Shown: piece by piece, positions 234 through 62,886 of the stretch
Layout of the letters: each line of letters opens with the position of its first letter
How positions within the stretch are numbered: the stretch's first letter is position 1
Program-made: the position numbers and the translations under genes
Source of the DNA: a virus
Direction: 5' to 3' (one strand)
Virus record (IMG/VR): IMGVR_UViG_3300009008_000029
Location: 11,784-75,783 of that record
Length of the DNA stretch: 64,000 nt
The notes under the pieces: model-generated
What the model was told of the DNA's origin: nothing
Database searches by the model: none
Seen by the model: only the letters and a program-made list of their open reading frames with translations

Positions 234-1448
234 ATGCAGATCTCTCTAGAGGCACTGGGTCAAGCTATTGCACCCATTGAACAACTGGGACAGGGGGAGT
301 TGACGTTTAAGGTGGGGGCCACCCCTATCACCTTGAGGATTATGACTCCTGAAGCTGAAATCGATGTGCAACGGTTTGCCAACGAGACCTTGGACGATGA
401 CGGGAACATGGCTGCCACAGCGGATTATCTGGAACGCTTCAAGTTGGCGGTGTTGTCGCATGCCATCGTTCAGGTCGGGGATCTGGATCTCCGGGGTGTG
501 AAGACCGTTGAGACGGGCGAGTTTCTGGATGATGGGACGACGCCCAAGAAAATCACGAAGATTAGGGCTGTCCGGGAAACGATCCTCAAGTGGTCCGGTT
601 CCATCCGGCTCGCTGTGTTCCGTAAGTACGGGGAACTGGTAGAAGAGGTGGAACGCAAGGCTGAGAAGGCCGTTGAGTTCAAACCTACGGACATCGATGC
701 TGAAATTGAGCGGGTTAAAGCCCGGCTCAAAGAACTGGAGGATGAGAAAGCCAAGGGGTTGGAGAATCCCGTTGAGACCCCCGTGGGCCGAATGTCCAAA
801 GCCGTAGCCGCCAATGATGCTTTGGAACAGGCGGAGACCAGCGAGAAGCTGAGTCGGATAGCCGCCGGGCAAGTCGAGCCTGAAGAGGTAGAACCGGCAC
901 CCACACCGCAGAAACCGCCCCAAACGGCCCGACAGCCCGTCACACCGACCCAAGCGGCCCCTCCGCCCCCGCCTAAGCCACAGGAGCCACCCTCGGCCCC
1001 TGTCGCACCCCAACAGGCACCTGAGCAGCCGTTACCGGCCCCTCCGCCCCCGCAGGACTCATTTGTAGATTCATCGGACCCGGATCAGATGAACGCAGCG
1101 GTTGCGGAAGAGAATCGCCGGTTGATGGCGGCCCGGATGGGAACGTCGGCGGCCCAGATGCCGGACTCGGTACTTGCTGCCGCCGCTCAGGTTGGAATCG
1201 CCAAGCCTCCGCACCTTGAGGCCCAGAAAGCGATGGAAGAGTTGGAGAACACCCCGACGGAGGATGCGACTGCGAAACCCGAACCGGACCCCCAGCCGGA
1301 TCAGCGTCCCACTTTCCGGCTGCCCGTCGAAGAAGTTGGGCCTCATACAGGGGGCCAGACGGCGGGTGAAGCACCTCAAGTGACGTTGAATGATCCAAAT
1401 GCGGGGAAAGGAACACGTAACCCTCGTTTCAGGACGCCGCAACAGTAG
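234..1448 (+). CDS. Putative tail/baseplate assembly chaperone with Pro/Gln-rich disordered C-terminal half
   Basis: ATG at 234 follows GGAGG (224-228), preferred over TTG 222. The N-terminal ~170 aa pattern (TLRIMT..E...LSHAIVQVG...ILKW...VFRKY) resembles tail assembly chaperones. It lies two genes upstream of the tape measure, and a coiled coil and a Pro-rich tract follow. Confidence 0.55.
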   Translation: MQISLEALGQAIAPIEQLGQGELTFKVGATPITLRIMTPEAEIDVQRFANETLDDDGNMAATADYLERFKLAVLSHAIVQVGDLDLRGVKTVETGEFLDDGTTPKKITKIRAVRETILKWSGSIRLAVFRKYGELVEEVERKAEKAVEFKPTDIDAEIERVKARLKELEDEKAKGLENPVETPVGRMSKAVAANDALEQAETSEKLSRIAAGQVEPEEVEPAPTPQKPPQTARQPVTPTQAAPPPPPKPQEPPSAPVAPQQAPEQPLPAPPPPQDSFVDSSDPDQMNAAVAEENRRLMAARMGTSAAQMPDSVLAAAAQVGIAKPPHLEAQKAMEELENTPTEDATAKPEPDPQPDQRPTFRLPVEEVGPHTGGQTAGEAPQVTLNDPNAGKGTRNPRFRTPQQ

Positions 1449-1464
1449 ATGATGGGAAGGGCTG

Positions 1465-2649
1465 ATGCAGAGTGCGTTGCAGAGTACCACACCGGATCAA
1501 CGCCACCCTTTGTACCGGGATGTGGAAACCCTCATCGCTCCGGGGTTCCTGAGTCAGCACGTCACCGTTAATGATGTCCCTCTAGCCCTACGGTCCCTTT
1601 TTCCGGGAGACATTTATCTCCTCCAAGCCCGAGTTGGTAATGGCGGAGATTCCGAATGGAAAAACTGGGCCATCGCTTCTTCCATCTGGTTGGTTCAGGG
1701 GTATATGGTCTCGGACCCGAATCTTGTCCCTCGTCTGTACCGGATGATCAAGGCACTCCCCAAACGGGCGAGAGACCGGCTCTTTTCCATCGTAGTCTCG
1801 ATGTTCGACCGCCAAGGAAAAGCACTGGAGGCTACCGAGTCCTATTGCTACGAGACCTTTTCCCGATACCAATGGCGAACCTACGGAGGTCATAACCCAA
1901 CGGATCACATGGGAATCTCCGGGTTGGAGAAGCTGGGGACAAATCACATCCAGAGAATGTGGACCTTCTACAACTCGGTTGAAGATCAACGTATCCAAGA
2001 TGACCGAATGTGGGAGGGGTTCAAGCTGTCTATCTCGCCCCACACCAAGGGCGTCAAGAAGATCGACCAGAAGGATATTCAGCAGCGGCGGGAAGAGTTG
2101 GCACGGCGTCAAGAGGTCCAAGACAAGTTCTTCTACACTGCAACTGGCGTGTTGGAAATTGGACCCAAGGGCGAGGTCAAGGATGCACCTCCGGGTATGG
2201 CGGTCAAATCCGTCGAGGATTTGGAGCAAGAGATGTACCGGTGGGTGACGGGTCAGGAGGACCAGCACGACGAGATTGTCAGGGCGTACAAGGAACGCAT
2301 TTCACGGAAGCATCAGGCCGCCAAGGAGGAGCGGGAACGTCGGGCTGCCATGATGCGTGAAGAGTATGACGACAATGCGGTTTTGGCATCGACTGCATTG
2401 GTTGGTTATACGGCGGACCAGTTGAGAGAGGTTTTGAAGGGCCGCAAGACGGGTGTGAAATCCGTTCTGCCGGGAGGCGGTGGTGTCCGAGATTATCTCT
2501 ATGAGAAGTATATAGAGAGGCCCGCTGATGCTGGGTTGTTGAAAGCCGAGAACGGCCAGTTGAAGGCGGGGGGTGGTAAAAACCTGACACCCCACTTAGA
2601 TGGGCGTCAGGTTCCTTTCCAAGTGGATGACTCGGGGAGCGAGGAATAA
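1465..2649 (+). CDS. Second putative tail assembly chaperone-like protein with charged helical C-terminus
   Basis: 394-aa ORF immediately upstream of the tape measure. Its N-terminus (LALRSL...AIASSIWLVQG...IKALP...LF) parallels that of the preceding gene. Confidence 0.45.
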   Translation: MQSALQSTTPDQRHPLYRDVETLIAPGFLSQHVTVNDVPLALRSLFPGDIYLLQARVGNGGDSEWKNWAIASSIWLVQGYMVSDPNLVPRLYRMIKALPKRARDRLFSIVVSMFDRQGKALEATESYCYETFSRYQWRTYGGHNPTDHMGISGLEKLGTNHIQRMWTFYNSVEDQRIQDDRMWEGFKLSISPHTKGVKKIDQKDIQQRREELARRQEVQDKFFYTATGVLEIGPKGEVKDAPPGMAVKSVEDLEQEMYRWVTGQEDQHDEIVRAYKERISRKHQAAKEERERRAAMMREEYDDNAVLASTALVGYTADQLREVLKGRKTGVKSVLPGGGGVRDYLYEKYIERPADAGLLKAENGQLKAGGGKNLTPHLDGRQVPFQVDDSGSEE

Positions 2650-2652
2650 GCC

Positions 2653-5600
2653 GTGGCAGGTGCAAACCAAAATGTTGTTGATGTCCTTTTAGGAATTGAA
2701 CCCAAAGGATTAAGCAACTTCAACAAAGCACTGACTCAGGTCTCCATCGATGCCATGACCACGATGTCTAAGCGTGGGGCAGAGAAATTCCTGAAGGAGA
2801 TGAAAACCACCTACGGGAAGCTGGAAAAGGCTCAGATGGAGTCGGCCAGAATCCTGCACAAGCTCAAGAAAGAGGAACTCACTGATATCCAGCGGCGGGA
2901 GTTGACCCACCGTCATCAGATGCTGCAAGGGGACATCAAGGACATCGAGAAGCGGTCCAAGATGGAACTGGAAGCAGCCGATAAGGTTGCCAAGCGTCGT
3001 AAGGCCCACTTTGAGAAACAAGCCAAGGCTCAGGAAAGGATCGGCAAAGTAGGAGAGGTTGGGGAGCAATTCGGGGAGGAAATGGCGAAAGCCTTTGCGG
3101 ACCTGACCTCCAAGGACATCGGACAGATGTTCAAGGGTCCATTGACCCAGATGGGTACCCTCACCAAGAAAATGGGAGAGGGTATCGGTAAGCGGGCGAA
3201 GCCGGACAGTGCAATAGGCAAGATCGGGGGCATGATGAGCAAGCTGGGGCCAGCGTTGATGGCTATCGGGGCCATCGCCGCCGGATTTGCCGCACTTCTC
3301 AAAATCTTTATTGATGCCGATGCTCAGGCCAAAGAGTTCAACCGAACGTTGATGGAGTCGGGTGCCGCAGCCGGGGAACTGACGGACAATTTAGGGGTTA
3401 TCGGGACTAACCTTACCACTATTCGAAGTGCCTTTACTGATTTCTCGTTCAACCGGATATGGGGTACTACCGCCAAAGATCATCTTGAGATTCTGGGTGC
3501 CTATGCGGGAGCGGGGATGACCTTCAAGAAATTAACCCAAGGCATCGACGACGCTGCGGGCAAGATGCAGACTCTTCAGAAAGCGACCTCCCAGACGCTG
3601 GCCTACGCCAAGCTATTTGGACAGACCAATACGGAAATGGCTGGGAACATGGGGATGTGGATGGAGGAATTGGGGCACAACTTTGAAACCATTGAAGAAG
3701 CGTTATCGGGCATTCATGATGCTGCGATGGAATCGGGTTTTGGTGTCAAACGATTTTACGGAATGATCCTTCAGGCCACCTCCGGGATGTCAATGTACAA
3801 TGTCCGGTTGAACGAGACCGCAGGGCTTTTGATGCAGTTGTCTAAGGTGCTGGGGCCAAATAAGGGGGGTGAGTTCTTACAGAACCTGCTGGGTGGGTTT
3901 AAAGAAACTAGCACCGCTGATCGAACAAAGACGGTGATGCGGACGGGGGAAGACCGCACGATTGAAATTCTCCGTAAAGGTGCGACAGATGCGGTGGGGG
4001 ACTTTAGGGACAAGATGAAATCTAGCAAGGCAGGGGAGGAGGTAGCGGCGCAGATTGAGAACTCCTTGGGTTTGAAGAAGGGTGAGAGTCAAACGATGTC
4101 ACCCGAGAAGCTGATGAGTAAGCTGGGGAATCTCCCCGATAATGCTCGTGATGACTTGGTATTTGCAATCCAGGCGTTGGATGAACCTCTGGCCCGCCAA
4201 ATGGCTGCTGTGACAAACAAAGCATTGGTGGCCCAAGGGGGGCGGGGAGGGGCGCAAGCATCCTTGCAGTTTGCTTCCCCTGCGGAGGCACTCGCCATCC
4301 AGTTGAATGAGCTTCAAGGTGTTTTGGGTAAGCGAGTGGACCAGATCGATCTGACGAATGAAGAGGAGCGAATTGCTTGGGAGAACATTACTGGAGTCCA
4401 AGGTGAGGCGGCACTCCAATTGTGGGAGGTTGGGAACAACGCCTCTGCTGCAAGCCGGATGCTGAAAGAGGCTCAGTCCCAGTTGAAAAAGACCCCCAAG
4501 GACATAGACAAAATCAATGAGAGATTACATAAGCAGGGGTACGAGATTGGTGCCTCCGGGGATGTCTATAAGGTCCGAAAAGAAGTGGATGATGAGGGGG
4601 AGAAGCATTGGGTTCAGGTGGGGAACATCATCGGAACTTCGGTCGAGGATGTCATTTTGGGTTCCGGTGATGAACTGGCCCAGATTGCAAAGGAAAAGGT
4701 GCCCGTCGATATTGCCCTCGCTCAGGAGGTAGCACGCAGTACGACTGAGATGACCAAGATATTGGAGCAGGGCGTTGAGTATTGGTTGGAGCGTATCCAC
4801 GGGGGAGTCGAGGATCTTATCAATATGTTCGGGGGCGGCAAGGAACGTAAGGCCCGTGACAGTTTGACGAGAGACAATAGGATACAGACGAAAGAGGCAC
4901 GTACTGCTTTACGTGACACGGAACGTCAAATAGCGGCTTTAGAAGTGGAAAAGACATCCACGACTTCGAAAAAAGAAAAGGAAGAATTGCAGCTCAAAAT
5001 CGATGCCCTCCAAAAGGGGGCAGACCGGCAAAAGGCCGCCGTTGAGACGCTCATGAAGGATGCTCAGAGATTGCAGCAGGTGGAATCGAGAAAAGGGTTC
5101 GGCAGTAGGCAGAGAAGCAAATCGGAACTGCGTATCGCAGCAAAGATGGGTCGTGGAGATGCTTCCTTTTTCCATCAACGACCTCAAGTGGTACGGGATA
5201 TCGGGCTGAATTTGGCGAGCGCAAAAGGGGCTGGGGCGGGTCTTTCCCAGTTGGAAACGGATTTCGACGGTGCGGCCTCCCCTGATGGTGATTTGGGGAA
5301 GGAATATAAGCGGTTAGGGGAGGAATTTGCAAAGACACTGTTTTTGGCGGCGGAAAAAGGCGCACAGCCCCAATTCCTTGCACGGGGCGACAGCGCACTT
5401 GACCCCAGTTTCCAAAAGAACATCTACAAGAATGTCAAGGAAACATTAGGTGCCGACGAGATCGTTAAAACTCTCGATGAGATACAGACAAGAAACGAGT
5501 TTGCGGCACAGAAGCGGGAAGAGGTGTTGGCGAAAGCCGACAATGACTTCTTCACGTCCCGAGCGGAAAAAAAGCGAGCGACGGAATTAGCCCAGAAGAT

Positions 5601-6081
5601 TGTTGAGGAAGGTAAGGGTTGGGAAAAAGAGAAACAGGAAGACGATATCGCCAAGTATCTTGAGATGACGGGCCTAAGCAAAGGTGATGCGAGGAGAGGA
5701 GCAAAAGCATTAACTGGGACGGGCAGTTTCGACAACAACAGGGGTTTGTTCACCGATGAGAGAGCCTCGGCAATCCTCAGAGATCTGGGTGATTCCAGAG
5801 CACTCGATTGGGGTAACAAATATATGTTGGAGGAACAGGTCAAGAATATCGGTAGTACCCCACCCGCCGGTGACCTCGTCATGCAGATTGGCAGCGAGGG
5901 CGTCAAGTTCGCCCAACGAGTCGATCCCGGAGACGTTGGAGTCTTTGCTAAGGCCGGGGGTGCCCTCGCAAATGCAAAGGGTGGCGGTGGCGGTGGTGTG
6001 AACGTCTATCACCTCTACGGTGAAGGTCCGGGTGTTTTGAACACGATTACGAAAGCCCAGCAGTCCGGGCTGTTGTCTTGA
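2653..6081 (+). CDS. Tail tape measure protein
   Basis: 1142 aa, GTG start after GAGGA. Ala/Gly/Lys/Glu-rich and helical, with one hydrophobic stretch (LMAIGAIAAGFAALLKIFI) and a Gly-rich C-terminus. It sits between chaperone-like and hub genes. Confidence 0.8.
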   Translation: MAGANQNVVDVLLGIEPKGLSNFNKALTQVSIDAMTTMSKRGAEKFLKEMKTTYGKLEKAQMESARILHKLKKEELTDIQRRELTHRHQMLQGDIKDIEKRSKMELEAADKVAKRRKAHFEKQAKAQERIGKVGEVGEQFGEEMAKAFADLTSKDIGQMFKGPLTQMGTLTKKMGEGIGKRAKPDSAIGKIGGMMSKLGPALMAIGAIAAGFAALLKIFIDADAQAKEFNRTLMESGAAAGELTDNLGVIGTNLTTIRSAFTDFSFNRIWGTTAKDHLEILGAYAGAGMTFKKLTQGIDDAAGKMQTLQKATSQTLAYAKLFGQTNTEMAGNMGMWMEELGHNFETIEEALSGIHDAAMESGFGVKRFYGMILQATSGMSMYNVRLNETAGLLMQLSKVLGPNKGGEFLQNLLGGFKETSTADRTKTVMRTGEDRTIEILRKGATDAVGDFRDKMKSSKAGEEVAAQIENSLGLKKGESQTMSPEKLMSKLGNLPDNARDDLVFAIQALDEPLARQMAAVTNKALVAQGGRGGAQASLQFASPAEALAIQLNELQGVLGKRVDQIDLTNEEERIAWENITGVQGEAALQLWEVGNNASAASRMLKEAQSQLKKTPKDIDKINERLHKQGYEIGASGDVYKVRKEVDDEGEKHWVQVGNIIGTSVEDVILGSGDELAQIAKEKVPVDIALAQEVARSTTEMTKILEQGVEYWLERIHGGVEDLINMFGGGKERKARDSLTRDNRIQTKEARTALRDTERQIAALEVEKTSTTSKKEKEELQLKIDALQKGADRQKAAVETLMKDAQRLQQVESRKGFGSRQRSKSELRIAAKMGRGDASFFHQRPQVVRDIGLNLASAKGAGAGLSQLETDFDGAASPDGDLGKEYKRLGEEFAKTLFLAAEKGAQPQFLARGDSALDPSFQKNIYKNVKETLGADEIVKTLDEIQTRNEFAAQKREEVLAKADNDFFTSRAEKKRATELAQKIVEEGKGWEKEKQEDDIAKYLEMTGLSKGDARRGAKALTGTGSFDNNRGLFTDERASAILRDLGDSRALDWGNKYMLEEQVKNIGSTPPAGDLVMQIGSEGVKFAQRVDPGDVGVFAKAGGALANAKGGGGGGVNVYHLYGEGPGVLNTITKAQQSGLLS

Positions 6082-6089
6082 GGTAGGTA

Positions 6090-6710
6090 ATGGGGCCGAA
6101 CGAGACAAGCATCTTCCAATCGGCATTTCAGTCGCCGGAGGATGAGTTCAACACCAATCTCGGTGTCCGTCCGTTTGTCTTTGACATTCTGGGGCCGGAC
6201 ATGGAGACCAGTGTGTTGCCCCGCAATTTGAGAATGGTCCTTCATGCACCCCCTCAGTCCGTCAACATCAGCTACAGCAAGCAGATTGAACGGATTCAGA
6301 CGAGAGGTGGGTTCGTTGAGCAGCATTGGGGTGAGGGTGCCCGGACCATCGATTTCAGTATGGTCACAGGGGGCTTTATGCGGCTTTTCTCCGGGCTTTC
6401 TAATGTCACCGGGGGTCCGGGTGCGGAAGACACCGGTGGAAGCCGACGTGAGTCAATCTCGTATGACAAGTATCTGGATTTCCTAGCCCTCTTCCACAAC
6501 AACGGGTCCGTTTACGATGCGACCGGCAAGATTGTCTTTCAGGGGATCATTCAGGTGACCTTTGATGGTGGCATCTACAACGGGTGGTTTTCTGATTTCA
6601 AAGTGACCGAGGATGCATCACGCCCCTATCTGTTTTCCCTGACCACGAATTTCACAATCGACCGGGAGATCCAGAGATTCAGGACACCACTTCCGGCAGG
6701 GGGTGTGTAA
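6090..6710 (+). CDS. Tail tube initiator / baseplate tube-like protein
   Basis: The motif PQSVNISYSKQIERIQTRGGFVEQHWGE..TIDFS...YNGWFSDFKVTE...FSLTTNFTI is typical of tube-fold proteins encoded after tape measures. RBS GAGG. Confidence 0.6.
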   Translation: MGPNETSIFQSAFQSPEDEFNTNLGVRPFVFDILGPDMETSVLPRNLRMVLHAPPQSVNISYSKQIERIQTRGGFVEQHWGEGARTIDFSMVTGGFMRLFSGLSNVTGGPGAEDTGGSRRESISYDKYLDFLALFHNNGSVYDATGKIVFQGIIQVTFDGGIYNGWFSDFKVTEDASRPYLFSLTTNFTIDREIQRFRTPLPAGGV

Positions 6711-8278
6711 TGGCTCCGACTACGGATTTTGCACCCATACCGGGGGGTCAACACCCCAGCACGAAAGAAAGTGATAGGAGGGCGAGGACTCCGGCCCCAA
6801 AACAGTTCAAGGCGGCCAAGAAAGCCAAGGTGAAACAAGAGCGGGTACTGGATACGGTTGAAACCACTGCCGTCGCCGAGGTCATGCCCCCGGCTCCTGA
6901 AACGGGCGAGGACGTGCAGATCGGGTCCATCGATGCAGTCCAGAGAAAAAACCTCAGTGAGAATGCACAGGCCCGCCGTGAAGCCGACTACGAGGAGCGG
7001 TACAACCAAGCGGTTGCGAACTCCGTCAAGACACCCCCGGACCCCGATAAGTATGTAGGGCTGCAAGCCGGACCAGAGTTGCAGATTCAGGTGGAAAACA
7101 GCCTGACCCGTCCGATGGACATGACCTCCTCGTTGCTCCGGCGTCTTTCCCCCTTCATGATCCAGTTGGAACCTCCTCTGGTGTACGGGGAAGATGGCGG
7201 CTTCCTGAACAAGGGCGGTAATCAGATCAACACCTCGGCCTTTGATGCGGCACAGCGAGGTGCTAGAGGGTATGAGAGTGCCCGCACTGCTTTGTCTCAG
7301 TCCGCCCTCTCTGTAGGGGTCAACAGCAATGTGACTTCGGCGGACGCCTTTGTGTCCGCCAACTCCCAGATTGCCCCCACGAAGGCGGGAAGCTCGGATT
7401 CCAACCCGTCAGACAATTTGGGGGAACCGGCAATCGCAGATCTGATGACCGCCGCTGACATCGCATGGCAGTTATCTACCGTGTTGAATGCTCCACCTTT
7501 GGTGTTGCTTATCAATCCAACCTCGATGGAGATCACCTACACGAAGGTTCAGCAGTTCCAAGACAGGACTCGTTACGGGTTTTTGTTTCAGGCGTGGGGC
7601 GAGGAACAACCCAAGATCACGTTTTCTGCCCGGTGCGGAGCCTTCGTGACGGGTGGCAAGGGCGTCCAGTATGCCAGCAAGCGGGACTCCCGTGCGTGGC
7701 AGAATCTGATGAACGCCTTTCACTTCTACAAGAACAACGGGTACATCTACGACACCATCGGGAAATCCAACGCCCATCTCTTTGTCGGTGCTTTGTCCAT
7801 CCATTACGACCAGATGGTCTACTACGGCAACATGGAATCTTTCGGGTGGGGTTACGACGAGAACAACCAGTTGGGTGGGGTGGAGTTCTCGATTGAGTTC
7901 ACCGTTACCGCCATGTTGGATACGGCCCAGCAGAAGTTCGTTGTGACCCCTATGAAATCTCCAATCCCCAGTCTGAGTGACCCTCGGTATTCCGGGATTG
8001 AGTCCAAATCGAAGAACGCCCCCGGTGAATTCTCGGTGGGGGCCGATAGTGATGGTCTCACGTTGACGACCGGCGGTCGGGATGTGAGCGTGGATGAAGC
8101 CTTCAGCAGTACGGTTGGGGCCGACTTGTATGATCAACCTCCGTCACCGGGGGGCATTGGGGATTCGGGGCCGTCTGAAAAGGGCTTCACGGAACCCACA
8201 GAAACGACTGAACCGGGAGAGCGTGAGGTTACGGTTGCGACGGCCACCTCCACGACGAAGCCTTTCGGGATGAGGTAA
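6710..8278 (+). CDS. Second tube-initiator-like protein with acidic, low-complexity N- and C-terminal extensions
   Basis: TAATG overlap. The central domain INPTSMEITYTK..DRTRYG.LFQAWGEEQPKITFS...YYGNMESF..YDE...FSIEFTV aligns by eye with the preceding gene. Confidence 0.6.
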   Translation: MAPTTDFAPIPGGQHPSTKESDRRARTPAPKQFKAAKKAKVKQERVLDTVETTAVAEVMPPAPETGEDVQIGSIDAVQRKNLSENAQARREADYEERYNQAVANSVKTPPDPDKYVGLQAGPELQIQVENSLTRPMDMTSSLLRRLSPFMIQLEPPLVYGEDGGFLNKGGNQINTSAFDAAQRGARGYESARTALSQSALSVGVNSNVTSADAFVSANSQIAPTKAGSSDSNPSDNLGEPAIADLMTAADIAWQLSTVLNAPPLVLLINPTSMEITYTKVQQFQDRTRYGFLFQAWGEEQPKITFSARCGAFVTGGKGVQYASKRDSRAWQNLMNAFHFYKNNGYIYDTIGKSNAHLFVGALSIHYDQMVYYGNMESFGWGYDENNQLGGVEFSIEFTVTAMLDTAQQKFVVTPMKSPIPSLSDPRYSGIESKSKNAPGEFSVGADSDGLTLTTGGRDVSVDEAFSSTVGADLYDQPPSPGGIGDSGPSEKGFTEPTETTEPGEREVTVATATSTTKPFGMR

Positions 8279-8281
8279 CGG

Positions 8282-15744: not shown

Positions 15745-15745
15745 C

Positions 15746-16351
15746 ATGGCATTGACCCCCACAGGCGTCTATAACGCCCTCGTAGCGAATCGCCTTGCGG
15801 GGGTTTTCCCTTTTGGCGGGGTGGCCTACGACAAGTTAGCTTTGGGGTTGGCTCTGGGGGTTTGCCAATGGGGTGTGAACAACCCGGCGAATCTAGCCTT
15901 GAAAGGGGTGGCTACCGGGTCCGCCGGGGTGGGTAAAATCCTACCCGCTGCCAGCAAAATCGTATTGGTGAGTTCCGGGGCCGTGACTGCCGGGTTGCAA
16001 GGGGCGGGGATGGTTGGGCCTCTGTCACAGGCACTGGGAACCGCAGTCGAGGCCGGTCTATCCCAAGCCTTCTCCAGCTTGGCACAATACAATGGTCAGA
16101 GTCCTACAGTGGCCGTTGGGACCGATACCAGCAAAGTTTCCGTCGCCAATGCCGCCTCGTTGGTCGGTATCTTGAATCAGACGATGGGAGCGGTAATGGG
16201 GACCGGACCGGCATATGGAATGATGACAGCGGGACTGGGGAATGGGGTGGCAGCACTCCTTCTTACTGGGACCGGTTCAGGGGCTGTGACGGGGACACCC
16301 GTAGTTCCAGCGGCCCCCGCAACGGGAACGACAACATCAGTGGTGATATAG
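15746..16351 (+). CDS. Small Gly/Ala-rich three-repeat protein, candidate spike-tip
   Basis: 201 aa, nearly uncharged, with three internal repeats. It lies directly after the spike gene. Confidence 0.5.
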   Translation: MALTPTGVYNALVANRLAGVFPFGGVAYDKLALGLALGVCQWGVNNPANLALKGVATGSAGVGKILPAASKIVLVSSGAVTAGLQGAGMVGPLSQALGTAVEAGLSQAFSSLAQYNGQSPTVAVGTDTSKVSVANAASLVGILNQTMGAVMGTGPAYGMMTAGLGNGVAALLLTGTGSGAVTGTPVVPAAPATGTTTSVVI

Positions 16352-27724: not shown

Positions 27725-27969
27725 TGACCAAGGATACCAAACAGATGTCCCCTGAAGAGGTTTTGGAAGAGTTGAAGAAGCTGGGTGTTGATGCTGGTGG
27801 GTGGGGCAAGGTGGAGAGTCATACCGCTCAGCCTCAGTTCTTACGGCGTCAAGGCGAGAGTCTAACGAAACTCCGGGACATCTTAGAATCGGTAGTGGCC
27901 AAGGATCAGGCGGATGTGGCTCGGTTGCGAGAGCAACTTACTCGGCTTGAACAAGGCGGGGGGTCATAA
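27724..27969 (+). CDS. Small coiled-coil protein
   Basis: Overlaps both neighbours (TGATG, TAATG). Heptad pattern LTKLRDILESVVAKDQADVARLREQLTRLE. Confidence 0.65.
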   Translation: MTKDTKQMSPEEVLEELKKLGVDAGGWGKVESHTAQPQFLRRQGESLTKLRDILESVVAKDQADVARLREQLTRLEQGGGS

Positions 27970-32977: not shown

Positions 32978-32980
32978 CAG

Positions 32981-41931: not shown

Positions 41932-41944
41932 CAGGAGGACGGCG

Positions 41945-46541: not shown

Positions 46542-46554
46542 TAGGGAGACGGAT

Positions 46555-50121: not shown

Positions 50122-50134
50122 CGTGGAGTGACTG

Positions 50135-55780: not shown

Positions 55781-55788
55781 GGTAATCC

Positions 55789-56604
55789 ATGAGGATACTC
55801 GTTGATTTGAAAAGCCATGTAACCGGATCGCCGGTCGTCACACAGGTGGAGAAGGTTCCACCCCCCGGCGTCGGCGTGGCCATCAACGGCAAGTACGTCC
55901 TCCCAATCCTGACGGGGGCCGAGTTTCCTGTGGATTCTACCTCCTATATTCTGCATGGGGCGGGCGAGATTGACGGTGGAGACCTATCCAGCATTTCCTT
56001 TGCCCATTTGTTGGCGATGTACCCCGGCTTTGGCCACATCTACTTCAACCCCCTCCTGACTGCGGACAATGTCGGAGAGTTGGATTTCACCAAGGAGTTC
56101 ATCGATCAGTCCTTGGACCCGGTTGCAACCTTCACACCCCGGCTTCAGACGGGGCGAGAACCGGGTGACGATGAAGGCCAAATGCCCACCCACACGGCTC
56201 TGCTGGCAGCCAACAGTGCGATGGACCCCGCTCGTCCGGGTCTGATTATTTCGGACCTGATCGATATCGGACCCTACACCTTGGATAGTCAGGGCAATGA
56301 GGTAGGGACTGATGAGTTCATGCTCTACTGGAAGATTCTGGGGTTCTCGGTCAGTGACGATGTTGCGGCTGATTATGGGGCGTTAGCGGATACCAACACC
56401 CCCGCAATTCGACAGGTCACTGAGGTGGATCAAGAGCCGGATGGGTTTTCGGCCTATATATCCCCGGATGATGGAGCGAACTGGTGCGAGGTAGGCTTGC
56501 TTGAACCAGTAGCCTTTGTTGAAAAGACGACCCAGATCCGGGTGGCGTTCAAGAACACGTCATCGAGTAAGGTGTTCTTGGCCCACTTTGCGGTTTTGTT
56601 CTAG
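55789..56604 (+). CDS. Fibre-associated beta-sandwich protein
   Basis: 271 aa, RBS GAGG. An Asp-box-like SPDDGANW lies near the C-terminus. The gene sits between two fibre genes. Confidence 0.6.
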   Translation: MRILVDLKSHVTGSPVVTQVEKVPPPGVGVAINGKYVLPILTGAEFPVDSTSYILHGAGEIDGGDLSSISFAHLLAMYPGFGHIYFNPLLTADNVGELDFTKEFIDQSLDPVATFTPRLQTGREPGDDEGQMPTHTALLAANSAMDPARPGLIISDLIDIGPYTLDSQGNEVGTDEFMLYWKILGFSVSDDVAADYGALADTNTPAIRQVTEVDQEPDGFSAYISPDDGANWCEVGLLEPVAFVEKTTQIRVAFKNTSSSKVFLAHFAVLF

Positions 56605-56613
56605 GAGACGAAT

Positions 56614-59600
56614 ATGGCTCTTGACTATGGAGACGGAGTATCCCGGACGCTGGCTGCCGCCCAACGACAGTACGGGCTGGTTGTCTGGCAAAAAAACAAA
56701 CCCCCGCTGGATAGCGAACTGAACTTGATGTCACAGGCATCTTGGGATGCGTTGCGTCAGGCTGTCAATGCGGGTGCGCCGTCGGGTTTCTTCATGGACC
56801 CGGCTCGCAGTCTCAACGACTATTTGTTCGACCCCAACTGGTCGAACTTCTTTTCGTTTGGGAATCCCCGCACTCCTATCTGTGAGGGTGAGTCCGCTGA
56901 GTCGGTAGCTCCGGTATGGGCCTCCGTCAATGGTTGGATTCTTCCTATCGCTGGCTCCAATGTCAGCACCGAGGGTGATCTACGGAATCTCATCAAGCTC
57001 TACCCGCCCCCGGACACGGATGCACGGATCGATTTCGTGTTCTTGGAGGCATGGGCAACACTGGTCAAGCCGAATCCGTCCACCACGAACAAGCCAAGTG
57101 CCTCTACCATCTACAAGTACGGGAACGTCGAGTACGGCGGAACCAATATCGCTGATGACATCGAAGACCCCACCGTAGGGATGGAAACGACGGCACGAGT
57201 TCAGATTCAGTACCGCCTCCGAATTTACGGGCAGGGTGCTGGTTTGGGTGCGGGCGTCACTTTGGATGTGTATCCCGAAGGGCTGGATGACCCCAATGTT
57301 CTGGGTCAAGGGACAGCTTCGTCACCCGTTGCGGGTGTCACCTTCTCCAACATGCGTGAGGAACTGGGCGACCCCGGTCTCTGGCGTGCTGGTTCCGGCG
57401 ACCCCAACAACGACCTTGGCACGATTGACGGTTATGTCTACGCCATTCCCATTTGTGCGATCTTCCGGCGTTCCAGTGAAGCCTATGTTGCGGTTGAAGA
57501 GGCTGGCGCACCCAGTCACAACGGCGGAAAAGACCGTACACCCAGTACGACGGCACCGAGCGGGGCAGCGATTCTGACTACCGCAACATTGACTTCGGCG
57601 TTGAGTGCCTCAACAGCAGTGCTGGCCGAAGCGGATATCTCCGTCACCAATCTGGTTGGGTCCGGGTTCGATGATGAGAGCCATACGATGGCCAGCACCT
57701 TCATGGTCATTGGCAACGAGATTATCGGGATGAGTGCCGTAGATACGGTAGGTGGCACCATTACAATCCCAGCAGCGGGCCGTGGACGCTACGGAACGGC
57801 TGCTGCGGGTCATGCTGCGGGTGCCACCATCACATTCTACAACACCTGTCCTGACGGCCTCTATTCGGACCAGATTGCCGAGCAAGACCTTCTGGACCTC
57901 CGCCACGCCGTAACACCGGGTGAGTGGGATTACGGTCGGTTGCTGGAGCACAATGTTGCGGCTCTGTTGAAGGGCGAGTTGCGGTCCACGTGGAAGGGGG
58001 CTGCCGAGGGAGACACGCAGGGTGTTGACGTACATGAGGTCACCTACCTCTACAGTGACGGTTCGGTAGATGAACCCAGCGGCACGGAACCTGCGGACGG
58101 CCCGGATGGGATTCGTACCGTCTGGTCCGATGCGGCAACGATTCAGCCAGATGTGACGATCCTGTTGGATAACACTGCACCCACAGACAACAATCAGGTT
58201 GGGTTGACCAATGCCAACACTTTTACGTCCGGGGCTGGTTATGCTTGGGACGTAGGAGCCGGGTTCTACCCCAGCGGGTACTTGAATCTGGCAGCGGGAG
58301 AGACCGCACGGTTCACCAACGGTTCGACCATCCTTCTGTTCCTTGGTGGGGCCGATGGTACTGGTGGGGCGAGGGCTACCTTCAGGGATGGCACCACAAG
58401 GGCCGTAAGAGCCGTCATGCCGCCGGAGTACTGGAAATCCGGGTATCCCATCGTAGACCCGACAAACGGCAACCAGCACCCCGTTAGCTTGCGTTTCCTG
58501 ACCGAGCGGGCGTTGGAGGCCGTACCCACGGATTTGGAGACGACCTTCTCGGACCGGCATCCCGGTCCGATGTACCCTTGGCGGGAACACAACTTTGAGA
58601 AGCCCTTTATCGTGCTGGGCGGAATCCTGTCATCGGAACTCAAGAAGGCTATTGCCGCCACAGGGCTGTCATCTTCCGGGACGGTGCATGAGATCAATCT
58701 GGGCATCAATTTCGATACCGATGGGGTCTATTTCACCAAGGACGCCAACGGGGATTTCGTAGGCGACCCGACTCAGATCACCAACCCCCTCCTCCGGGGT
58801 CAACGTACCTTGTTTGATATGTTGACAAGGGGTGGGGAAGACCGGACGGGTAATTCCTCCGAAGTCTATGTCGTCTTGTACGGGGACAACGCTGACCGCA
58901 ACAACAACGGGGCATTCAAGGTTATCGGTGCTGGTTTGACGGCGGGGTACACCAACAACGCAGCCTCGGCAGCCACCTCGATTCGTGTCGTGTCCTTGTG
59001 CCCTGAGTTCACTGGCTTTGACGATGCTACCGGGAACACGGTTACGGTTGAGTTCCGGTCACAGTATCACAACTCGGATGACACCTCTTCGTACAACGCC
59101 AAGGTTGCGGATATGGCCATTGTCCTGACGGACATTGGTGGTTTGACCGATCATCCTTGGAAGCGGACGACTCTGGGTTACAATGCGGTTCCGCCGGACA
59201 ACTACGACGTGTCCATGCCCTTCTACCCGGATGAGAATGGGCACGCTTCGGTTCCGTCCAAGATGCTGATCAACATGACCCTGATGTACCACCCCGGACG
59301 GGGTGGGACAGTCAGAGTGCCGGGCGAGATTGTCCGGTTCGCCATGAAGGGCGGCTTGGAAGAGGACGAGGGGGCTTACCTCCGTCAGTCCCCCGCTGCT
59401 ATTGACTCCACCTTCTCGGCTGTCACGGGCGCACCGGACGATGAGACATTCTGGGATGCCGCCCACGTCCAGTTGTGGAACCGCCTACCCTCGTTGGGCT
59501 GGCACGCTCCGTTGGCCACTGATTATGGTGGCAATGTTGTAGGGTACACCGAGATTGATCGAGAGCACGAGTTGCTCATCGACCGTGGTTCCAAGACGGT

Positions 59601-62600
59601 TCTGTTCCGGCCTTTCCGGGATCGCCAGATGACCCTACAGGCAATGTCGTGGAATGCCGAGGGGGTTCTGAGCGGGACCAACTGCCTCTTGGGTTCTTAC
59701 GAGTACCTGAACACCAATGACAAAGACGCTTTGCGGATGTGGACTGGCACCTCCGGTATTGATCAAGGTGGTACGGGCAAGCAGATGGGTTTCCCGGTTC
59801 CACGGGAGTTCATGCCCCGATTCGGTCGTCAGGATATCCCCTACTATGTTGACACCTCGGATGGTGCGGGTCCGTTCCTTCCCGGTATCAACCACTTGTT
59901 CCGGGATGCTTCCAATTCGGCCTCCCCGGTATTCCAACTTATCGGTGGAGATCCGGTAGCCTCTGGTGAACCGGGCGTCAACTCGATGCTCTTTGCCACC
60001 GGCGGGGTCGGGGAACTGACCCCAGTGTATGGCAAAAACGACACGATGCCCGCCGAGATCAATGAAAAGGCATTCATCTGGGCACGGCGGACCGGTGACA
60101 TTGATTCTGAGGTTGAGTACGCCCCGGCTATCATTGCCAGCTTGAAGGCGGTCAACTCTTCGGACTTCGGCAAGGGTCTGTCTGGAATCCAGTTGCCTCC
60201 CTACTACGGTATCGCCCGTCTATACGGGGTCTATGATGCCCGTGATTACGACACCAAGGGCGGTCGGACCTTCAAATCGAACCGGTATGAAGTAGATGAT
60301 GATCCGGCACCGAACCTGATCCGTGAGGATGCGGACCAGCAGACCTTGTTCATTCTGCAAGACGGGGCCAAGGATGCTACCGGTGAGGACGGAGACCACA
60401 CCTACCTCATCCCCTACAACGTGTTGGACATCACCCGTGCCTTGAACTACGAGGCGGGGGACGAACCTGCGGACTATCAGTACGTTGTTGAGTGCGTTGT
60501 TTTCGGGTTTGCACAGGGCTTCATCAACGAGAACAATCTGGTCGTCGTGAGGAAGTTCGGCGGCACCGGGCTGGCTATTGACGGCGGCACCGATGGCAAC
60601 CAAGACGGCGACGATGCTGAACTTGAGGGCGTCCACATGGTCTTGCCTTGTGCGGCGGGATATCATGACCAGTGTTACGCTGCCTACAACCGGACTGTGT
60701 ATCAGGGTGACCCCTACATGAGCCGGGGCGGAGCCAAGGCTGACTCGGACTACGAACACCGCTACGGTCAGTTGTCCATTGCGGCTCAGTACGCAATGCG
60801 GATGCCCATTGAGCAGTATGATGCCAGCGGTGACTTCGTCCCCCAGATTCCCAACCCCAAGACCTTTGAGGTTCTGGCCTCGATGGATTTCTTCACGACG
60901 ATGGGGACCGGGAAGATCGGTGGTCAGTTGTATGCGGGCACTCCGCTGGACGTTGGATACACGCAGGACACCGCCAAATCCTCTATCCGGTCGATGAACG
61001 AAACGGACGTGGGGTGGCGGATCGAGCCACGGGCTTTCACCGAGGGGCAGAAGACCAACACCTCCCGTGCTGGTTTGACACTGGAACTCGTAGACAACGA
61101 CGGATTGAACCCCGCTGACGGTGACAACGCCATCATCAGGGTTGGTTTGCTGGATGACACCGTACTGGACCTCTATGCTTGCAAGACCGAGTACCAGTCA
61201 GCCCTCATCGCCGGGGGTGTACCTGCGGCGGACATCTTCACCGTTGACGTAACCAAAACGGTCCGGGAACTGACAACCTCCTATACCTTCAGTGAGGCGA
61301 CCGAGGTTGCACCCGGTTCCTCTGAACTGTTCACCACCATGTTGATCGAGGATGCCGCACTTGGTGACGCCGTTGTTGTCAATTTCGATGGTGAGGCGAT
61401 GCCGCCCATCATTGCACAGGGTTGGGTTGATGCCGCCGGGTCGGTGAAGGTTCTGTTCACCAACACATGGCCCACGATGCCCTTTGCAATCGATTCCGTA
61501 GCAAACGCCATTCAGACGGTCACGTTGGGTGGTGCTGCACAAGAGGTTGGAGCACACGCCACCATGACCTATCAGACGGGTGTGGCCTTCACGGGTGCGG
61601 ACACTGCGGAAGTGCAGCAGTACGTCGTACAGACGCTGGCTGGCGGTGACATTGACGGGATTGTCTGGCGTGCGGTTGCTTCTGACGCCGACGAGATCAC
61701 TATCTATGCAACCAACACTACAGCGACACCTATCACGGTGGAGGCCGCACTTGAGCTTCAGGTTGCGTTGCTGGAGGAGACCGTTGCCGCAGATCACACC
61801 TATGACCTGAACGGGACGGTTCTGTACATCAAGGTCATCAAGACGGACATCTCTACCGGACTGCCGGAACGGACCGCCGACAATCTGGCGACCTTGATCA
61901 ATGGCCACGCCAGCTTGACCCGGTCCCTGCGTGCCTCGGCGAACGGGAATGTTGTGACCCTTTCAGCAGTTCCCGTTGGAGCCGAGGGCAACGGAATCAA
62001 CATTGCGGTACGCCACACGGGGACCACACCTGATATTCAGGACGTGATCCACCTCATCAAGCCGTTCTTCAACGTATTCCTGAACCCGGACACGACCAGT
62101 TGCAACCTGTTCGGTGGGGAGGATATCCCTGTCAATGCGGGCGATGGCACCAGTCAGATTCGATTGACGGGTATGACGGAACGATTGCCGATGGGTGCCT
62201 TGCTGCAAGATTCCGATTTCTTGTGCGAGAATATCCTCGGTGACGATGCGACGGCGGTCAAGACGAGTCCAACGGGGCCACAGCCTCTCCAGACTGTCAT
62301 GCCTATGACGGTTGACGGGGGTGAGTTCTCCCGGTTCTTTGGAAACCCCGGCGAGTTGGTTGTTCTTGCCGACGGTTCAATCTCGGTAACGAGCTTTGCG
62401 GCATGGCGTCAGGTTCCTGAAGGTGGTGGTGGTCCTACAGGTTCCCGCAAGTTCCGGTTGTACCGGGGCGGCGGCTCGGCGTTCTTGCTGTCCGGGGACC
62501 ATCCGGGTGGCCCGTTGGACTGGGTTTCTGAGAGTTTCCCCAAGTCGTTGACGCCTGTTTTGAAGGGTGGCGTGTTGTCCTGCAAGGCATTGCTGGTACG

Positions 62601-62886
62601 CAACTTCCGGGAGGACAAGACCCCCGATGCTGGTGCGGTCAAGGTTTCCGAGGGCGATGAGATCCAGATGGTTGTGTTGACTCGTGCCCTCCTCGGCGAC
62701 GGCTCTGTGACGGATGAGGGTTTGTCTCTGGGCGGAACTATCTCACCTTCCGGGTATGGTGAAGGGTGGGCCGCAGCGGATCGATACCGGTTAGCGGGTA
62801 AGCCTTTGTACAAGGGCTTCAACCGTGAAGTGCCGGACCCGACGGCTGTTGAACTGGTTGTGTACCCCGATGAGCAGAGGCCATAA
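56614..62886 (+). CDS. Tail fibre / fibre-network protein, paralogue B (2090 aa)
   Basis: RBS AGGAG. Blocks VWQKNKPPLDSELN, RIDFVFLEAW, ETTARVQIQYRLR, DGYVYAIPIC and PDGLYSD...DLR are shared with 42984..46541. Confidence 0.65.
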   Translation: MALDYGDGVSRTLAAAQRQYGLVVWQKNKPPLDSELNLMSQASWDALRQAVNAGAPSGFFMDPARSLNDYLFDPNWSNFFSFGNPRTPICEGESAESVAPVWASVNGWILPIAGSNVSTEGDLRNLIKLYPPPDTDARIDFVFLEAWATLVKPNPSTTNKPSASTIYKYGNVEYGGTNIADDIEDPTVGMETTARVQIQYRLRIYGQGAGLGAGVTLDVYPEGLDDPNVLGQGTASSPVAGVTFSNMREELGDPGLWRAGSGDPNNDLGTIDGYVYAIPICAIFRRSSEAYVAVEEAGAPSHNGGKDRTPSTTAPSGAAILTTATLTSALSASTAVLAEADISVTNLVGSGFDDESHTMASTFMVIGNEIIGMSAVDTVGGTITIPAAGRGRYGTAAAGHAAGATITFYNTCPDGLYSDQIAEQDLLDLRHAVTPGEWDYGRLLEHNVAALLKGELRSTWKGAAEGDTQGVDVHEVTYLYSDGSVDEPSGTEPADGPDGIRTVWSDAATIQPDVTILLDNTAPTDNNQVGLTNANTFTSGAGYAWDVGAGFYPSGYLNLAAGETARFTNGSTILLFLGGADGTGGARATFRDGTTRAVRAVMPPEYWKSGYPIVDPTNGNQHPVSLRFLTERALEAVPTDLETTFSDRHPGPMYPWREHNFEKPFIVLGGILSSELKKAIAATGLSSSGTVHEINLGINFDTDGVYFTKDANGDFVGDPTQITNPLLRGQRTLFDMLTRGGEDRTGNSSEVYVVLYGDNADRNNNGAFKVIGAGLTAGYTNNAASAATSIRVVSLCPEFTGFDDATGNTVTVEFRSQYHNSDDTSSYNAKVADMAIVLTDIGGLTDHPWKRTTLGYNAVPPDNYDVSMPFYPDENGHASVPSKMLINMTLMYHPGRGGTVRVPGEIVRFAMKGGLEEDEGAYLRQSPAAIDSTFSAVTGAPDDETFWDAAHVQLWNRLPSLGWHAPLATDYGGNVVGYTEIDREHELLIDRGSKTVLFRPFRDRQMTLQAMSWNAEGVLSGTNCLLGSYEYLNTNDKDALRMWTGTSGIDQGGTGKQMGFPVPREFMPRFGRQDIPYYVDTSDGAGPFLPGINHLFRDASNSASPVFQLIGGDPVASGEPGVNSMLFATGGVGELTPVYGKNDTMPAEINEKAFIWARRTGDIDSEVEYAPAIIASLKAVNSSDFGKGLSGIQLPPYYGIARLYGVYDARDYDTKGGRTFKSNRYEVDDDPAPNLIREDADQQTLFILQDGAKDATGEDGDHTYLIPYNVLDITRALNYEAGDEPADYQYVVECVVFGFAQGFINENNLVVVRKFGGTGLAIDGGTDGNQDGDDAELEGVHMVLPCAAGYHDQCYAAYNRTVYQGDPYMSRGGAKADSDYEHRYGQLSIAAQYAMRMPIEQYDASGDFVPQIPNPKTFEVLASMDFFTTMGTGKIGGQLYAGTPLDVGYTQDTAKSSIRSMNETDVGWRIEPRAFTEGQKTNTSRAGLTLELVDNDGLNPADGDNAIIRVGLLDDTVLDLYACKTEYQSALIAGGVPAADIFTVDVTKTVRELTTSYTFSEATEVAPGSSELFTTMLIEDAALGDAVVVNFDGEAMPPIIAQGWVDAAGSVKVLFTNTWPTMPFAIDSVANAIQTVTLGGAAQEVGAHATMTYQTGVAFTGADTAEVQQYVVQTLAGGDIDGIVWRAVASDADEITIYATNTTATPITVEAALELQVALLEETVAADHTYDLNGTVLYIKVIKTDISTGLPERTADNLATLINGHASLTRSLRASANGNVVTLSAVPVGAEGNGINIAVRHTGTTPDIQDVIHLIKPFFNVFLNPDTTSCNLFGGEDIPVNAGDGTSQIRLTGMTERLPMGALLQDSDFLCENILGDDATAVKTSPTGPQPLQTVMPMTVDGGEFSRFFGNPGELVVLADGSISVTSFAAWRQVPEGGGGPTGSRKFRLYRGGGSAFLLSGDHPGGPLDWVSESFPKSLTPVLKGGVLSCKALLVRNFREDKTPDAGAVKVSEGDEIQMVVLTRALLGDGSVTDEGLSLGGTISPSGYGEGWAAADRYRLAGKPLYKGFNREVPDPTAVELVVYPDEQRP

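Follow-up and report, generated by a model that had tools for sequence, protein, structure and literature searches.

Contractile tails compared with the locus

Almost all knowledge of huge phages comes from metagenomes, and what their extra DNA serves for is a general question. The solved baseplates of Mu and P2 (Mu, 9ki1; Mu gp44, 1wru; P2 gpV, 3qr8) have the same core set of proteins, in the same order, as is read in the locus described here, with the hub fold in common and, on weaker evidence, the spike fold and the gpI-type protein. However, Mu differs greatly in scale. Its five core proteins amount to 1,261 aa against 5,841 aa for their five counterparts here, and to this same Mu set, hub to gp48, corresponds a stretch from hub to gpI of 11,092 aa here. 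Mu also lacks a hub lysin, and nothing is added between its spike and gp25 genes.

The only cultured phages with detectable homologues of the large proteins are phage G (Donellivirus gee, 497 kb) and Tunturiibacter phage Tunturi_5 (309 kb). In phage G the tail genes follow the same order (sheath, tube, chaperones, tape measure, and then gp184, the hub gp185, gp186, the gp25-like gp187, gpJ gp188 and the gpI-like gp189), and profile comparison links its sheath, tube, gp184, hub, gp187 and gp189 to proteins here, from 88% for the hub to 99.7% for the sheath. However, its parts are smaller (sheath 579 aa versus 1770 aa, hub 840 versus 1680, gpJ 619 versus 1157), the stretch after the tape measure (gp184 to gp189) occupies about 11 kb versus 57 kb here, and its tape measure is longer (2893 aa versus 1142 aa). 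Tunturi_5 is a myovirus with a tape measure of 1106 aa and a tail of 167 nm, and its hub carries the annotation of a tail protein with lysin activity (PMC11924767). Its gpJ (1239 aa) and sheath (~1200 aa) are also large, and its fibres have the N-terminal anchor in common with those here. It differs in its 23–32% identity in the core domains, its hub of 883 aa and its tail module of about 40 kb.

Precedents for large baseplates, many fibres and decorated sheaths exist among phages above 200 kb, in the 80 x 35 nm baseplate of phiKZ, the hyperbranched fibres of phiKp24 and the hairy sheath of Erwinia phage Y3 (PMC13282480). These phages (genomes about 240–350 kb) show no detectable sequence kinship with the locus, and none is reported to have a ~3,800-aa protein in the baseplate operon.

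The window analysed here is a stretch of 64,000 nt, positions 11,784 to 75,783 of the IMG/VR virus record IMGVR_UViG_3300009008_000029. From 222 to 62886 the ORF listing gives a single tightly coupled gene run, all on the + strand; positions below are those of the window unless the contig is named. An earlier note on this DNA had described one coupled run with ten proteins of 800–3790 aa, ~16,500 aa in sum with the tape measure left out. The measured lengths (807–3790 aa, sum 16,575 aa) agree, and downstream of the tape measure 17 genes encode 18,671 aa over 56,797 bases. The coupling is borne out as well, because small coupled ORFs at 27721–27969 (82 aa) and 42583–42984 (133 aa) fill the two apparent gaps. 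For almost all genes of the run, dozens of viral contigs contain a homologue of similar length, so that the ORFs are real genes rather than chance readings; the exceptions are a 1881-aa protein, with no match in these searches, and a 271-aa protein, with one homologue. Chimeric assembly or readthrough under a wrong code would be suggested by the unusual sizes only, and is hardly credible for ORFs of the same length, at 29–83% identity (table 11), in independent contigs from many samples, with GC content even throughout the window.

We consider it very probable that the window is the tail-tip half of the tail operon of an uncultivated huge myophage that keeps the usual baseplate plan, with enlarged parts and clade-added genes. 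It is an extreme variant of the myophage baseplate, known here from genes alone, and not a new kind of system.

From the sheath to the gpI-like wedge

Both sheath and tube, for which the earlier note had proposed a search of the flanks, are present upstream of the window. The sheath (1770 aa, contig 751–6063) has a C-terminus that matches 217 annotated sheaths (tblastn) and falls into one group with those of phage G, Tunturi_5 and mycobacteriophages. It is linked to phage G gp178 (hhalign 99.7%), and the Pfam sheath models give no match to it. Its size also qualifies the view that enlargement is a property of the tail tip: the tip proteins are indeed large, but enlargement is not confined to them. 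The tube (284 aa, contig 10919–11773) matches the phage G tube gp179 (94.5%). Between tube and tape measure are genes for a 408-aa protein (222–1448) and a 394-aa protein (1465–2649), an order kept in 42–49 related loci. Neither protein matches Pfam or PHROG; by position the pair may represent tail assembly chaperones or another tail protein.

The 1142-aa tape measure (2653–6081) is recognized by phrog_24 (E 4.3e-5), and its Lys/Glu/Ala-rich composition differs from that of the adjoining proteins. Homologues of 936–1264 aa occupy the same position in 55 loci, upstream of the hub, an order also seen in Mu, P2, phage G and Tunturi_5. It would set a tail of about 170 nm, as had been estimated before, and this estimate fits Tunturi_5, where a tape measure of 1106 aa goes with a measured tail of 167 nm (PMC11924767). 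All of the large proteins presumably belong to one baseplate, and the tip would then be large relative to the tail.

The next two genes encode proteins of 206 aa (6090–6710) and 522 aa (6710–8278). The smaller matches residues 236–421 of the larger (blastp, E 1.7e-14), and by this similarity the two are a paralogous pair placed between tape measure and hub. The 522-aa family is linked to phage G gp184, the gene after that phage's tape measure (hhalign 92%, E 5.7e-7). A PDB search with the pair gave no match; a role in the inner baseplate or at the tube-hub junction is likely.

The 1680-aa protein (8282–13324) is identified through its predicted structure as a baseplate hub of the gp27/Mu gp44 type over residues ~22–800. 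An AF2 model of residues 1–880 (pLDDT 65.5) matches Milano, 7-7-1, Mu gp44, PVC, AlgoCIS, VgrG and T4 gp27 in Foldseek (E 6e-9 to 1e-4). VIA aligns 270–320 residues, spanning residues 22–800, with the hubs of the S. coelicolor CIS, phi812, PVC, pyocin R2 and Mu (Z 22.9–20), and the profile match to the phage G hub, gp185, is 88%. The fold is interrupted twice. At about 135–321, inside the first hub domain, is an insert whose model resembles the DD-peptidase 1lbu (VIA Z 9.4 over 125 residues) and also the Hedgehog N-domain, and which carries H218-x6-D225 and H284, the LAS zinc-ligand pattern. This insert has the predicted fold and activity of an M15/LAS zinc peptidase; the Pfam M15 models give no match to it in this hub and do match two relatives. 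The second interruption, at about 450–610, is helix-rich and poorly modelled, and the C-terminal extension of 800 aa has no assigned fold.

The relatives carry lysozyme, SLT, M15 or amidase domains at the same insert site, and on these domain matches the cell-wall enzyme of the hub appears to be exchanged like a cassette. The atlas lead for the hub was E217_GP41 with Peptidase_M15. The hub of Pseudomonas phage E217, gp41, likewise bears an M15 peptidase (fold match 8eon_E, Z 16.1), and the gp5 lysozyme of T4 similarly places a peptidoglycan hydrolase on the central hub/spike complex. In contrast to these, the enzyme here interrupts the first hub domain, in a protein about four times as long, and its type varies among relatives. 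The trimeric hub would carry its own cell-wall peptidase.

The gene of the probable spike (807 aa, 13321–15744) directly follows that of the hub. Its AF2 model is poor (pLDDT 51), and a PDB profile search found nothing. Within the model, the OB domain (residues 36–131) has its best matches in Pa193, Mu gp45, P2 gpV, pyocin R2 and phi92 (Z 7.0–7.7), so that the top matches are phage spikes, mixed with generic OB folds, and residues 637–726 resemble the phiKZ spike 6orj (Z 6.9). The C-terminal segments are strand-rich, and relatives are 44–83% identical.

Further downstream, the 384-aa protein (31823–32977) can be assigned by profile as a gp25-type sheath initiator. The Pfam model Sheath_initiator matches it at E 1.6e-4, under the curated cut-off, and matches 17 of 20 family members (best E 3.2e-6). 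PHROG baseplate families match it at E 2e-6, all seven PDB profile hits are of gp25 type (phi812, pyocin PA0617, T4 gp25 and diffocin among them; E 0.016–0.44), and phage G gp187 is linked at 98.6% (hhalign, E 1e-15). The gp25 domain lies at about 218–345, behind an N-terminal extension of 215 aa. The 1157-aa protein (32981–36454) is by the same kind of evidence a wedge protein of the gpJ/T4 gp6 type, with matches to Pfam Baseplate_J (E 9.5e-19, 68.1 bits against a cut-off of 21.1) and phrog_6 (E 2.2e-26) and 68 complete orthologues of 1124–1276 aa.

The 1813-aa protein (36454–41895) appears to combine a gpI-like wedge module (residues 1–454) with a large distal part, an assignment supported transitively. 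The family of its N-terminus is linked to the corresponding end of phage G gp189 (hhalign 97.6%, E 2.9e-12), a protein detected in virions whose annotation is P2 gpI-like plus a C-terminal appendage (PMC12484599). Direct comparison with Mu gp48, P2 gpI, PF10076 and PF09684 gave no significant match. Many relatives split the gpI-like and distal parts into separate genes, as in the one relative inspected, with genes of 457, 702 and 1870 aa. The following 218-aa protein (41945–42601) matches phrog_5417 (unknown function; E 1e-16), and 14 orthologues lie after a gpI-like gene.

Fold and profile searches thus support the canonical order of hub, spike, gp25, gpJ, gpI and fibres with enlarged parts that had been read from the ORFs. 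The assignments of hub, gp25 and gpJ all hold, while those of the spike (OB fold, weak model) and of gpI (position after gpJ, link through gp189) are supported more weakly. The assembled tip would consist of the hub, an OB-fold spike, then a gp25-type initiator, a gpJ/gp6-type wedge, a gpI/gp7-type wedge and several long fibres, each core part being three to ten times the length of its P2/Mu counterpart.

Genes added between spike and gp25

Five genes, for proteins of 201, 3790, 82, 966 and 294 aa, lie between the spike and gp25. The 201-aa protein (15746–16351) has only nine charged residues and is rich in G (16%), A (17%) and V (12%). It is kept in 51 loci at the same position after the spike, and is possibly a spike tip or membrane-active part. 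The 966-aa (27969–30869) and 294-aa (30881–31765) genes have 43 and 61 complete orthologues, respectively, at the same position upstream of gp25. Neither protein has a Pfam or PHROG match, and the 966-aa family has no PDB match; both are probably extra wedge or inner-baseplate parts. The 82-aa ORF is coupled on both sides: it begins just before the 3790-aa gene stops and ends where the 966-aa gene starts. Its product would be charged and, by eye, helical; its expression is putative.

The largest of these, the 3790-aa protein (409 kDa, 16352–27724), has 12 full-length relatives of 3437–3926 aa (29–82% identity, 75–100% coverage), and its gene is syntenic in 55 loci, within the baseplate gene order. 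No Pfam domain, enzyme motif, PDB-sequence match or atlas lead was found, nor any match in Tunturi_5; in these sequence comparisons it is specific to this clade. It contains 2.6% Lys and is rich in G, T, V and D, a composition like that of the wedge, fibre and sheath proteins and unlike that of the tape measure. Its most likely role is that of a beta-rich scaffold at the periphery or of a fibre-like part, and at three or six copies it would add 1.2–2.5 MDa.

In phage G the place of the 201-, 3790-, 966- and 294-aa proteins is without genes, and none lies between gp186 and gp187, where the 966- and 294-aa genes sit here. This bears on the earlier proposal that the apparatus grew by domain accretion: inserted domains are present, but about 5,300 aa consist of whole extra genes absent from phage G. 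Added as whole genes in this clade, they could form extra baseplate layers.

The tail of phage G works without genes at that position, and so the block could be one operon but not one apparatus, with the 3790-aa protein (perhaps also the 966-, 201- and 1881-aa proteins) ejected, internal or a decoration elsewhere on the virion. Pilot or channel-forming proteins such as T7 gp15/gp16, or the N4 virion polymerase, are models for the ejected or internal role. No fold or family could be assigned to these proteins, and the place of the 3790-aa gene after the spike, with a nearly uncharged 201-aa protein, is a plausible site for membrane penetration. However, its composition is not that of a helical tape measure, the narrow range of length maintained across divergent relatives suggests a fixed structural span, the gene stays inside the baseplate order, and both enzyme motif and Pfam domain are absent. 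On balance we regard a role outside the baseplate as rather unlikely.

It is conceivable, and we suggest it only tentatively, that the added genes form a baseplate layer or host-envelope device without counterpart in any solved contractile system. Around the spike, such a structure might take the form of a central fibre or of a cage of several megadaltons, and in that case the 3790-aa protein would found a new structural family with new folds. As structural targets the locus offers this 409-kDa orphan conserved over its full length, a hub with a cassette enzyme, and a wedge gene found both fused and split.

Probable fibre block and viral context

Conservation drops steeply in the block from 42984 to 62886, which encodes proteins of 1185 aa (42984–46541), 1206 aa (46501–50121), 1881 aa (50135–55780), 271 aa (55789–56604) and 2090 aa (56614–62886). 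N-terminal domains common to the 1185- and 2090-aa proteins (blastp E 1e-15) match the Tunturi_5 tail fibre gp247, and the 2090-aa protein has a weak match to the tail protein family phrog_1101. Neither the IMG/VR loci fetched nor the GenBank phages contain a match to the 1881-aa protein, as is expected for receptor binders. These features suggest a fibre or receptor-binding block, to which the 1206-, 1881- and 271-aa proteins are assigned by position.

The contig is 75.8 kb long and rated 14% complete by CheckV. Its relatives include contigs of 536 kb (CheckV 100%), 497 kb and 402 kb, the last with direct terminal repeats, and the genome is probably 0.4–0.55 Mb, with the contig a fragment of it. 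The hub is found in more than 100 viral contigs (IMG/VR), with the block laid out in the same order, and a gpJ relative is encoded in 116 stretches, again in that order. About a tenth of a ~0.5-Mb genome would be spent on sheath, baseplate and fibres in this clade. The parts far exceed those of phage G at a like genome size, which suggests a host envelope that is demanding or variable and gives a starting point for work on host range.

Genes for capsid, portal or terminase were not seen on the 75.8-kb contig, itself a fragment, and three Pfam terminase models gave no match in four large relatives. The basis of the virus call is therefore IMG/VR and CheckV, the terminal repeats and the phage-type sheath. 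The lack of such genes in these results, the equal match of the hub model to eCIS, pyocin and phage hubs, and the provirus flag on one 381-kb relative could point instead to a defective prophage or a contractile injection system of bacteria (eCIS, tailocin or T6SS-like). However, IMG/VR lists the contig and its more than 100 relatives, of up to 536 kb, as viruses, the nearest record in GenBank is that of an uncultured phage of 485 kb, and the sheath C-terminus groups with those of phages. An Afp15-type AAA+ ATPase was absent from Pfam scans of all ORFs of the contig (a fragment), and after the block follows an ORF of the next module (63239–64000, running off the contig end) with a weak holin-like segment (phrog_1299 and phrog_1129, E 1e-4 and 2e-3). 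Such an origin is thus very improbable. On the virus records and huge relatives, the jumbo phage of the earlier note is much the likelier reading, over the giant injection system offered beside it.

Close full-length homologues were found neither in a structurally described phage nor in cultured phages. A full-length match among 50,697 GenBank phage records is confined to one, the uncultured 485-kb LR745208, the matches in Tunturi_5 and phage G being restricted to core domains. In LR745208 the same genes are spread over about 240 kb, which indicates that their co-location is not obligatory.

Gene order and conservation of the tail block

The window covers bases 11784–75783 of a single contig of 75,783 bp. 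IMG/VR lists this contig as a linear virus record, and CheckV rates it 14% complete. The ORF listing of the window contains 20 large ORFs on the + strand, running from 222 to 62886 with near nil spacing, and what look like two gaps in the run are each occupied by a small coupled ORF (82 and 133 aa, respectively). GC content is even across the window (54–58%). The ten proteins of at least 800 aa pointed out in the earlier note sum to 16,575 aa in this listing, and the tape measure (1142 aa) is followed by 17 genes that together encode 18,671 aa in 56.8 kb.

A pattern scan of IMG/VR identified 103 relatives of the 1680-aa protein on contigs reaching 536 kb, 80 of which were retained. Gene order is constant across these loci: tube, 408 aa, 394 aa, tape measure, 206 aa, 522 aa, 1680 aa, 807 aa, 201 aa and the 3790-aa giant. 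A scan based on the alignment of the gpJ-type protein added 116 further relatives, whose loci include the genes for 966, 294, 384 and 1157 aa plus the next gene downstream. One contig of 217 kb and another of 74 kb carry both halves of the block, in the same order as in the window and with 45–62% identity. Judged from sequence, the genes of the block are real and almost all of them are conserved.

The search of 50,697 GenBank phage records yielded only one phage, the uncultured 485-kb LR745208, with full-length or nearly full-length matches to the large proteins. Matches in the 309-kb Tunturi_5 and the 497-kb phage G are limited to core domains, so that among these records no cultured phage carries the close full-length homologues that would have counted against the earlier note. 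The same tail genes are dispersed in LR745208.1 and do not form one block, with approximate positions of 230 kb for the giant, 264 kb for gpJ, 308 kb for a fibre, 315 kb for the hub, 330 kb for the sheath and 470 kb for the spike.

Four large relatives were also identified in IMG/VR: one of 536 kb (CheckV 100%), one of 497 kb (94%), one of 402 kb that carries direct terminal repeats, and one of 381 kb. The Pfam models Terminase_6N, Terminase_6C and TerL_nuclease have zero matches in these near-complete genomes, and the packaging genes of the clade are either very divergent or else unusual. One of the four carries a provirus flag.

Sheath, hub and wedge proteins

The earlier note had proposed looking for sheath and tube genes in the flanks, and predicted genes for both lie upstream of the window. 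The sheath is a 1770-aa ORF (contig 751–6063), about three times the length of its counterpart in phage G (gp178). Its last 390 residues match gp178 at 99.7%, and tblastn matches 217 annotated sheaths, while the Pfam sheath models have zero matches on the contig. An ORF of 284 aa matches the tube protein of phage G. A search with an HMM of the sheath only retrieved nothing beyond a module of ~95 aa that is duplicated within the sheath itself (residues 199–291 and 1092–1192). Tests by sequence for small modules common to the sheath, gp25-like and giant proteins were negative (hhalign 0.6% and 4.8%). The length of the sheath and its duplicated module suggest that the tail tube may be heavily decorated too. 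The interval between sheath and tube (contig 6765–10773) is unusual for the interior of a tail operon, as it encodes a regulator of the MerR type and a VIT-VWA protein of 845 aa; five relatives have VWA homologues at the equivalent place.

Profile searches of the PDB by sequence returned nothing usable for the sheath, tube, hub, spike, gpI-like, 522-aa or 966-aa families. The AF2 model of the first 880 of the 1680 residues of the hub protein (window 8282–13324) has a pLDDT of 65.5. Foldseek gave E-values down to 6e-9 for this model, and VIA gave Z-scores of 20–22.9 against the hubs of Streptomyces CIS, phi812, PVC, pyocin R2 and Mu (gp44), with fold matches extending over residues 22–800. The ESM atlas lead for this protein was also correct. 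On the strength of the predicted fold, the N-terminal 880 residues are assigned as a baseplate hub.

In the same model, an insert within the first hub domain (about residues 135–321) matches the zinc DD-peptidase 1lbu (VIA Z 9.4) as well as Hedgehog N-domains, and H218-x6-D225 and H284 are present. The insert site (about residues 110–388) was compared across homologues in 80 loci of relatives (L007–L086), where it holds Phage_lysozyme2 (3), SLT (2), Peptidase_M15_3 (2), Amidase_2 (2) or Hedgehog-like LAS domains. Because differing lysin domains occupy the same site in relatives, the predicted cell-wall enzyme of the hub appears to be an exchangeable cassette.

The 1157-aa gpJ protein is clearly named by both Pfam and PHROGs. 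Naming of the 384-aa gp25-like protein from its single sequence is weak in both databases. The assignment is firmer at the family level, since 17 of 20 relatives match Pfam Sheath_initiator, all seven PDB profile matches are gp25-type proteins, and the gp25-like gp187 of phage G matches the family at 98.6%. The hub, gp25 and gpJ assignments of the earlier note thus hold in fold and profile searches. Two relatives have a single ORF that unites the gp25-like gene with gpJ (L137:8885–13513, 1542 aa; L149:8846–13522, 1558 aa).

Residues 1–454 of the 1813-aa gpI-like protein (window 36454–41895) match the N-terminal part of gp189 of phage G (97.6%, E 2.9e-12). The phage G study annotates gp189 as similar to P2 gpI, with an appendage at its C-terminus, and reports its presence in virions (PMC12484599). 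Direct comparisons of the protein with Mu gp48, P2 gpI and their Pfam models gave nothing significant, and these models have zero matches on the contig. Matches of the family to ACE2 in the PDB profile search were judged to be chance. The 1813-aa gene is fused from parts that lie apart elsewhere: many relatives encode the counterpart of residues 1–454 in a gene of its own, of ~460 aa. The ORFs of one relative were read (L143:13477–22617); there, genes of 457, 702 and 1870 aa stand in place of the single gene, and the remainder of the 1813-aa protein corresponds to the C-terminal part of the 1870-aa gene, beyond the 702-aa gene. This difference reflects either deletion and fusion in the window or insertion in the relatives.

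Putative spike, giant protein and neighbouring families

The model of the 807-aa putative spike protein is poor (pLDDT 51). Among the fold matches of its OB domain, the spikes of Pa193, Mu, P2, pyocin R2 and phi92 rank highest (Z 7–7.7), and a C-terminal sheet in the model matches the phiKZ spike. Comparisons of the spike family with Tunturi_5 gp253 and with phage G gp186 were not significant. The 201-aa protein directly downstream (window 15746–16351) has only 9 charged residues, consists of 46% Gly, Ala and Val, is kept in 51 loci, and may be membrane-active. Upstream of the hub (window 6090–8278), the 206-aa protein is a paralogue of residues 236–421 in the 522-aa protein (E 1.7e-14), and phage G gp184 matches the 522-aa family. 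A relation of this family to Mu gp43 or to the tube family was considered, but comparisons gave no relation.

The 3790-aa protein (window 16352–27724) lies between the spike and the gp25-like gene and has 12 full-length relatives of 3437–3926 aa with 29–82% identity. Pfam assigns it no domain, PDB sequence searches along its entire length brought no match, and the ESM atlas gave no lead. Its composition is like that of the wedge, fibre and sheath proteins and unlike that of the tape measure. When 120-residue segments starting at positions 1–1201 were compared with all later ones using hhalign, no internal match exceeded 80%, and the motif [ND]xxxGx[LIVM]xF reported in the earlier note has zero exact copies. 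From its sequence, the protein is best described as one large orphan family of this clade. Most proteins of the block have no match in Pfam or PHROGs, and the positions of the 966-, 294-, 218-, 206/522- and 201-aa proteins are conserved among relatives. The tripeptide Asp-Gly-Tyr, counted in every protein of the contig, is not enriched: each has 0–3 copies, and the sheath, gpJ and the 3790-aa protein have none. In the predicted fibre block, no search run (the IMG/VR loci fetched and GenBank phages) brought up a relative of the 1881-aa protein. The N-terminal domains of the 1185-aa and 2090-aa proteins are related to one another and also match the tail fibre of Tunturi_5.

Size of the apparatus and routes of enlargement

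Both the original observation and its main reading, an enlarged contractile-tail baseplate of a huge phage, stand, and the block is a conserved and extreme variant of the baseplate of myophages, present in a clade of uncultivated huge phages. A 2026 review (PMC13282480) lists phiKZ, phiKp24, Y3 and phage G as cases of large or ornate tail tips. Al-Shayeb et al. (2020) mention huge-phage proteins as long as 7,694 aa, some of them tentatively assigned as structural, with nothing further on them; no description of this clade's baseplate was found in the literature. Five core proteins of Mu amount to 1,261 aa, whereas their counterparts in the window amount to 5,841 aa. Phage G has a genome of similar size and parts whose homology is detectable; there, the genes following the tape measure span about 11 kb, compared to about 57 kb here.

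Domain accretion, to which the earlier note attributed this enlargement, accounts for part of it. Insertion and extension of proteins are shown for the hub and are evident for the sheath and for gp25, which has a 215-aa N-terminal extension. However, accretion is not the sole route, as about 5,300 aa between spike and gp25 consist of added genes. No such genes are present in phage G, where gp186 directly adjoins gp187.

Assuming the usual copy numbers, the five core proteins would by themselves have a mass of about 3.7 MDa, and the 3790-aa protein, at an assumed 3 or 6 copies, would add 1.2–2.5 MDa. The tape measure of Tunturi_5 is 1106 aa long and its contractile tail measures 167 nm (PMC11924767). 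At the resulting 0.151 nm per residue, the 1142-aa tape measure would imply a tail of about 172 nm, in agreement with the earlier estimate of about 170 nm.
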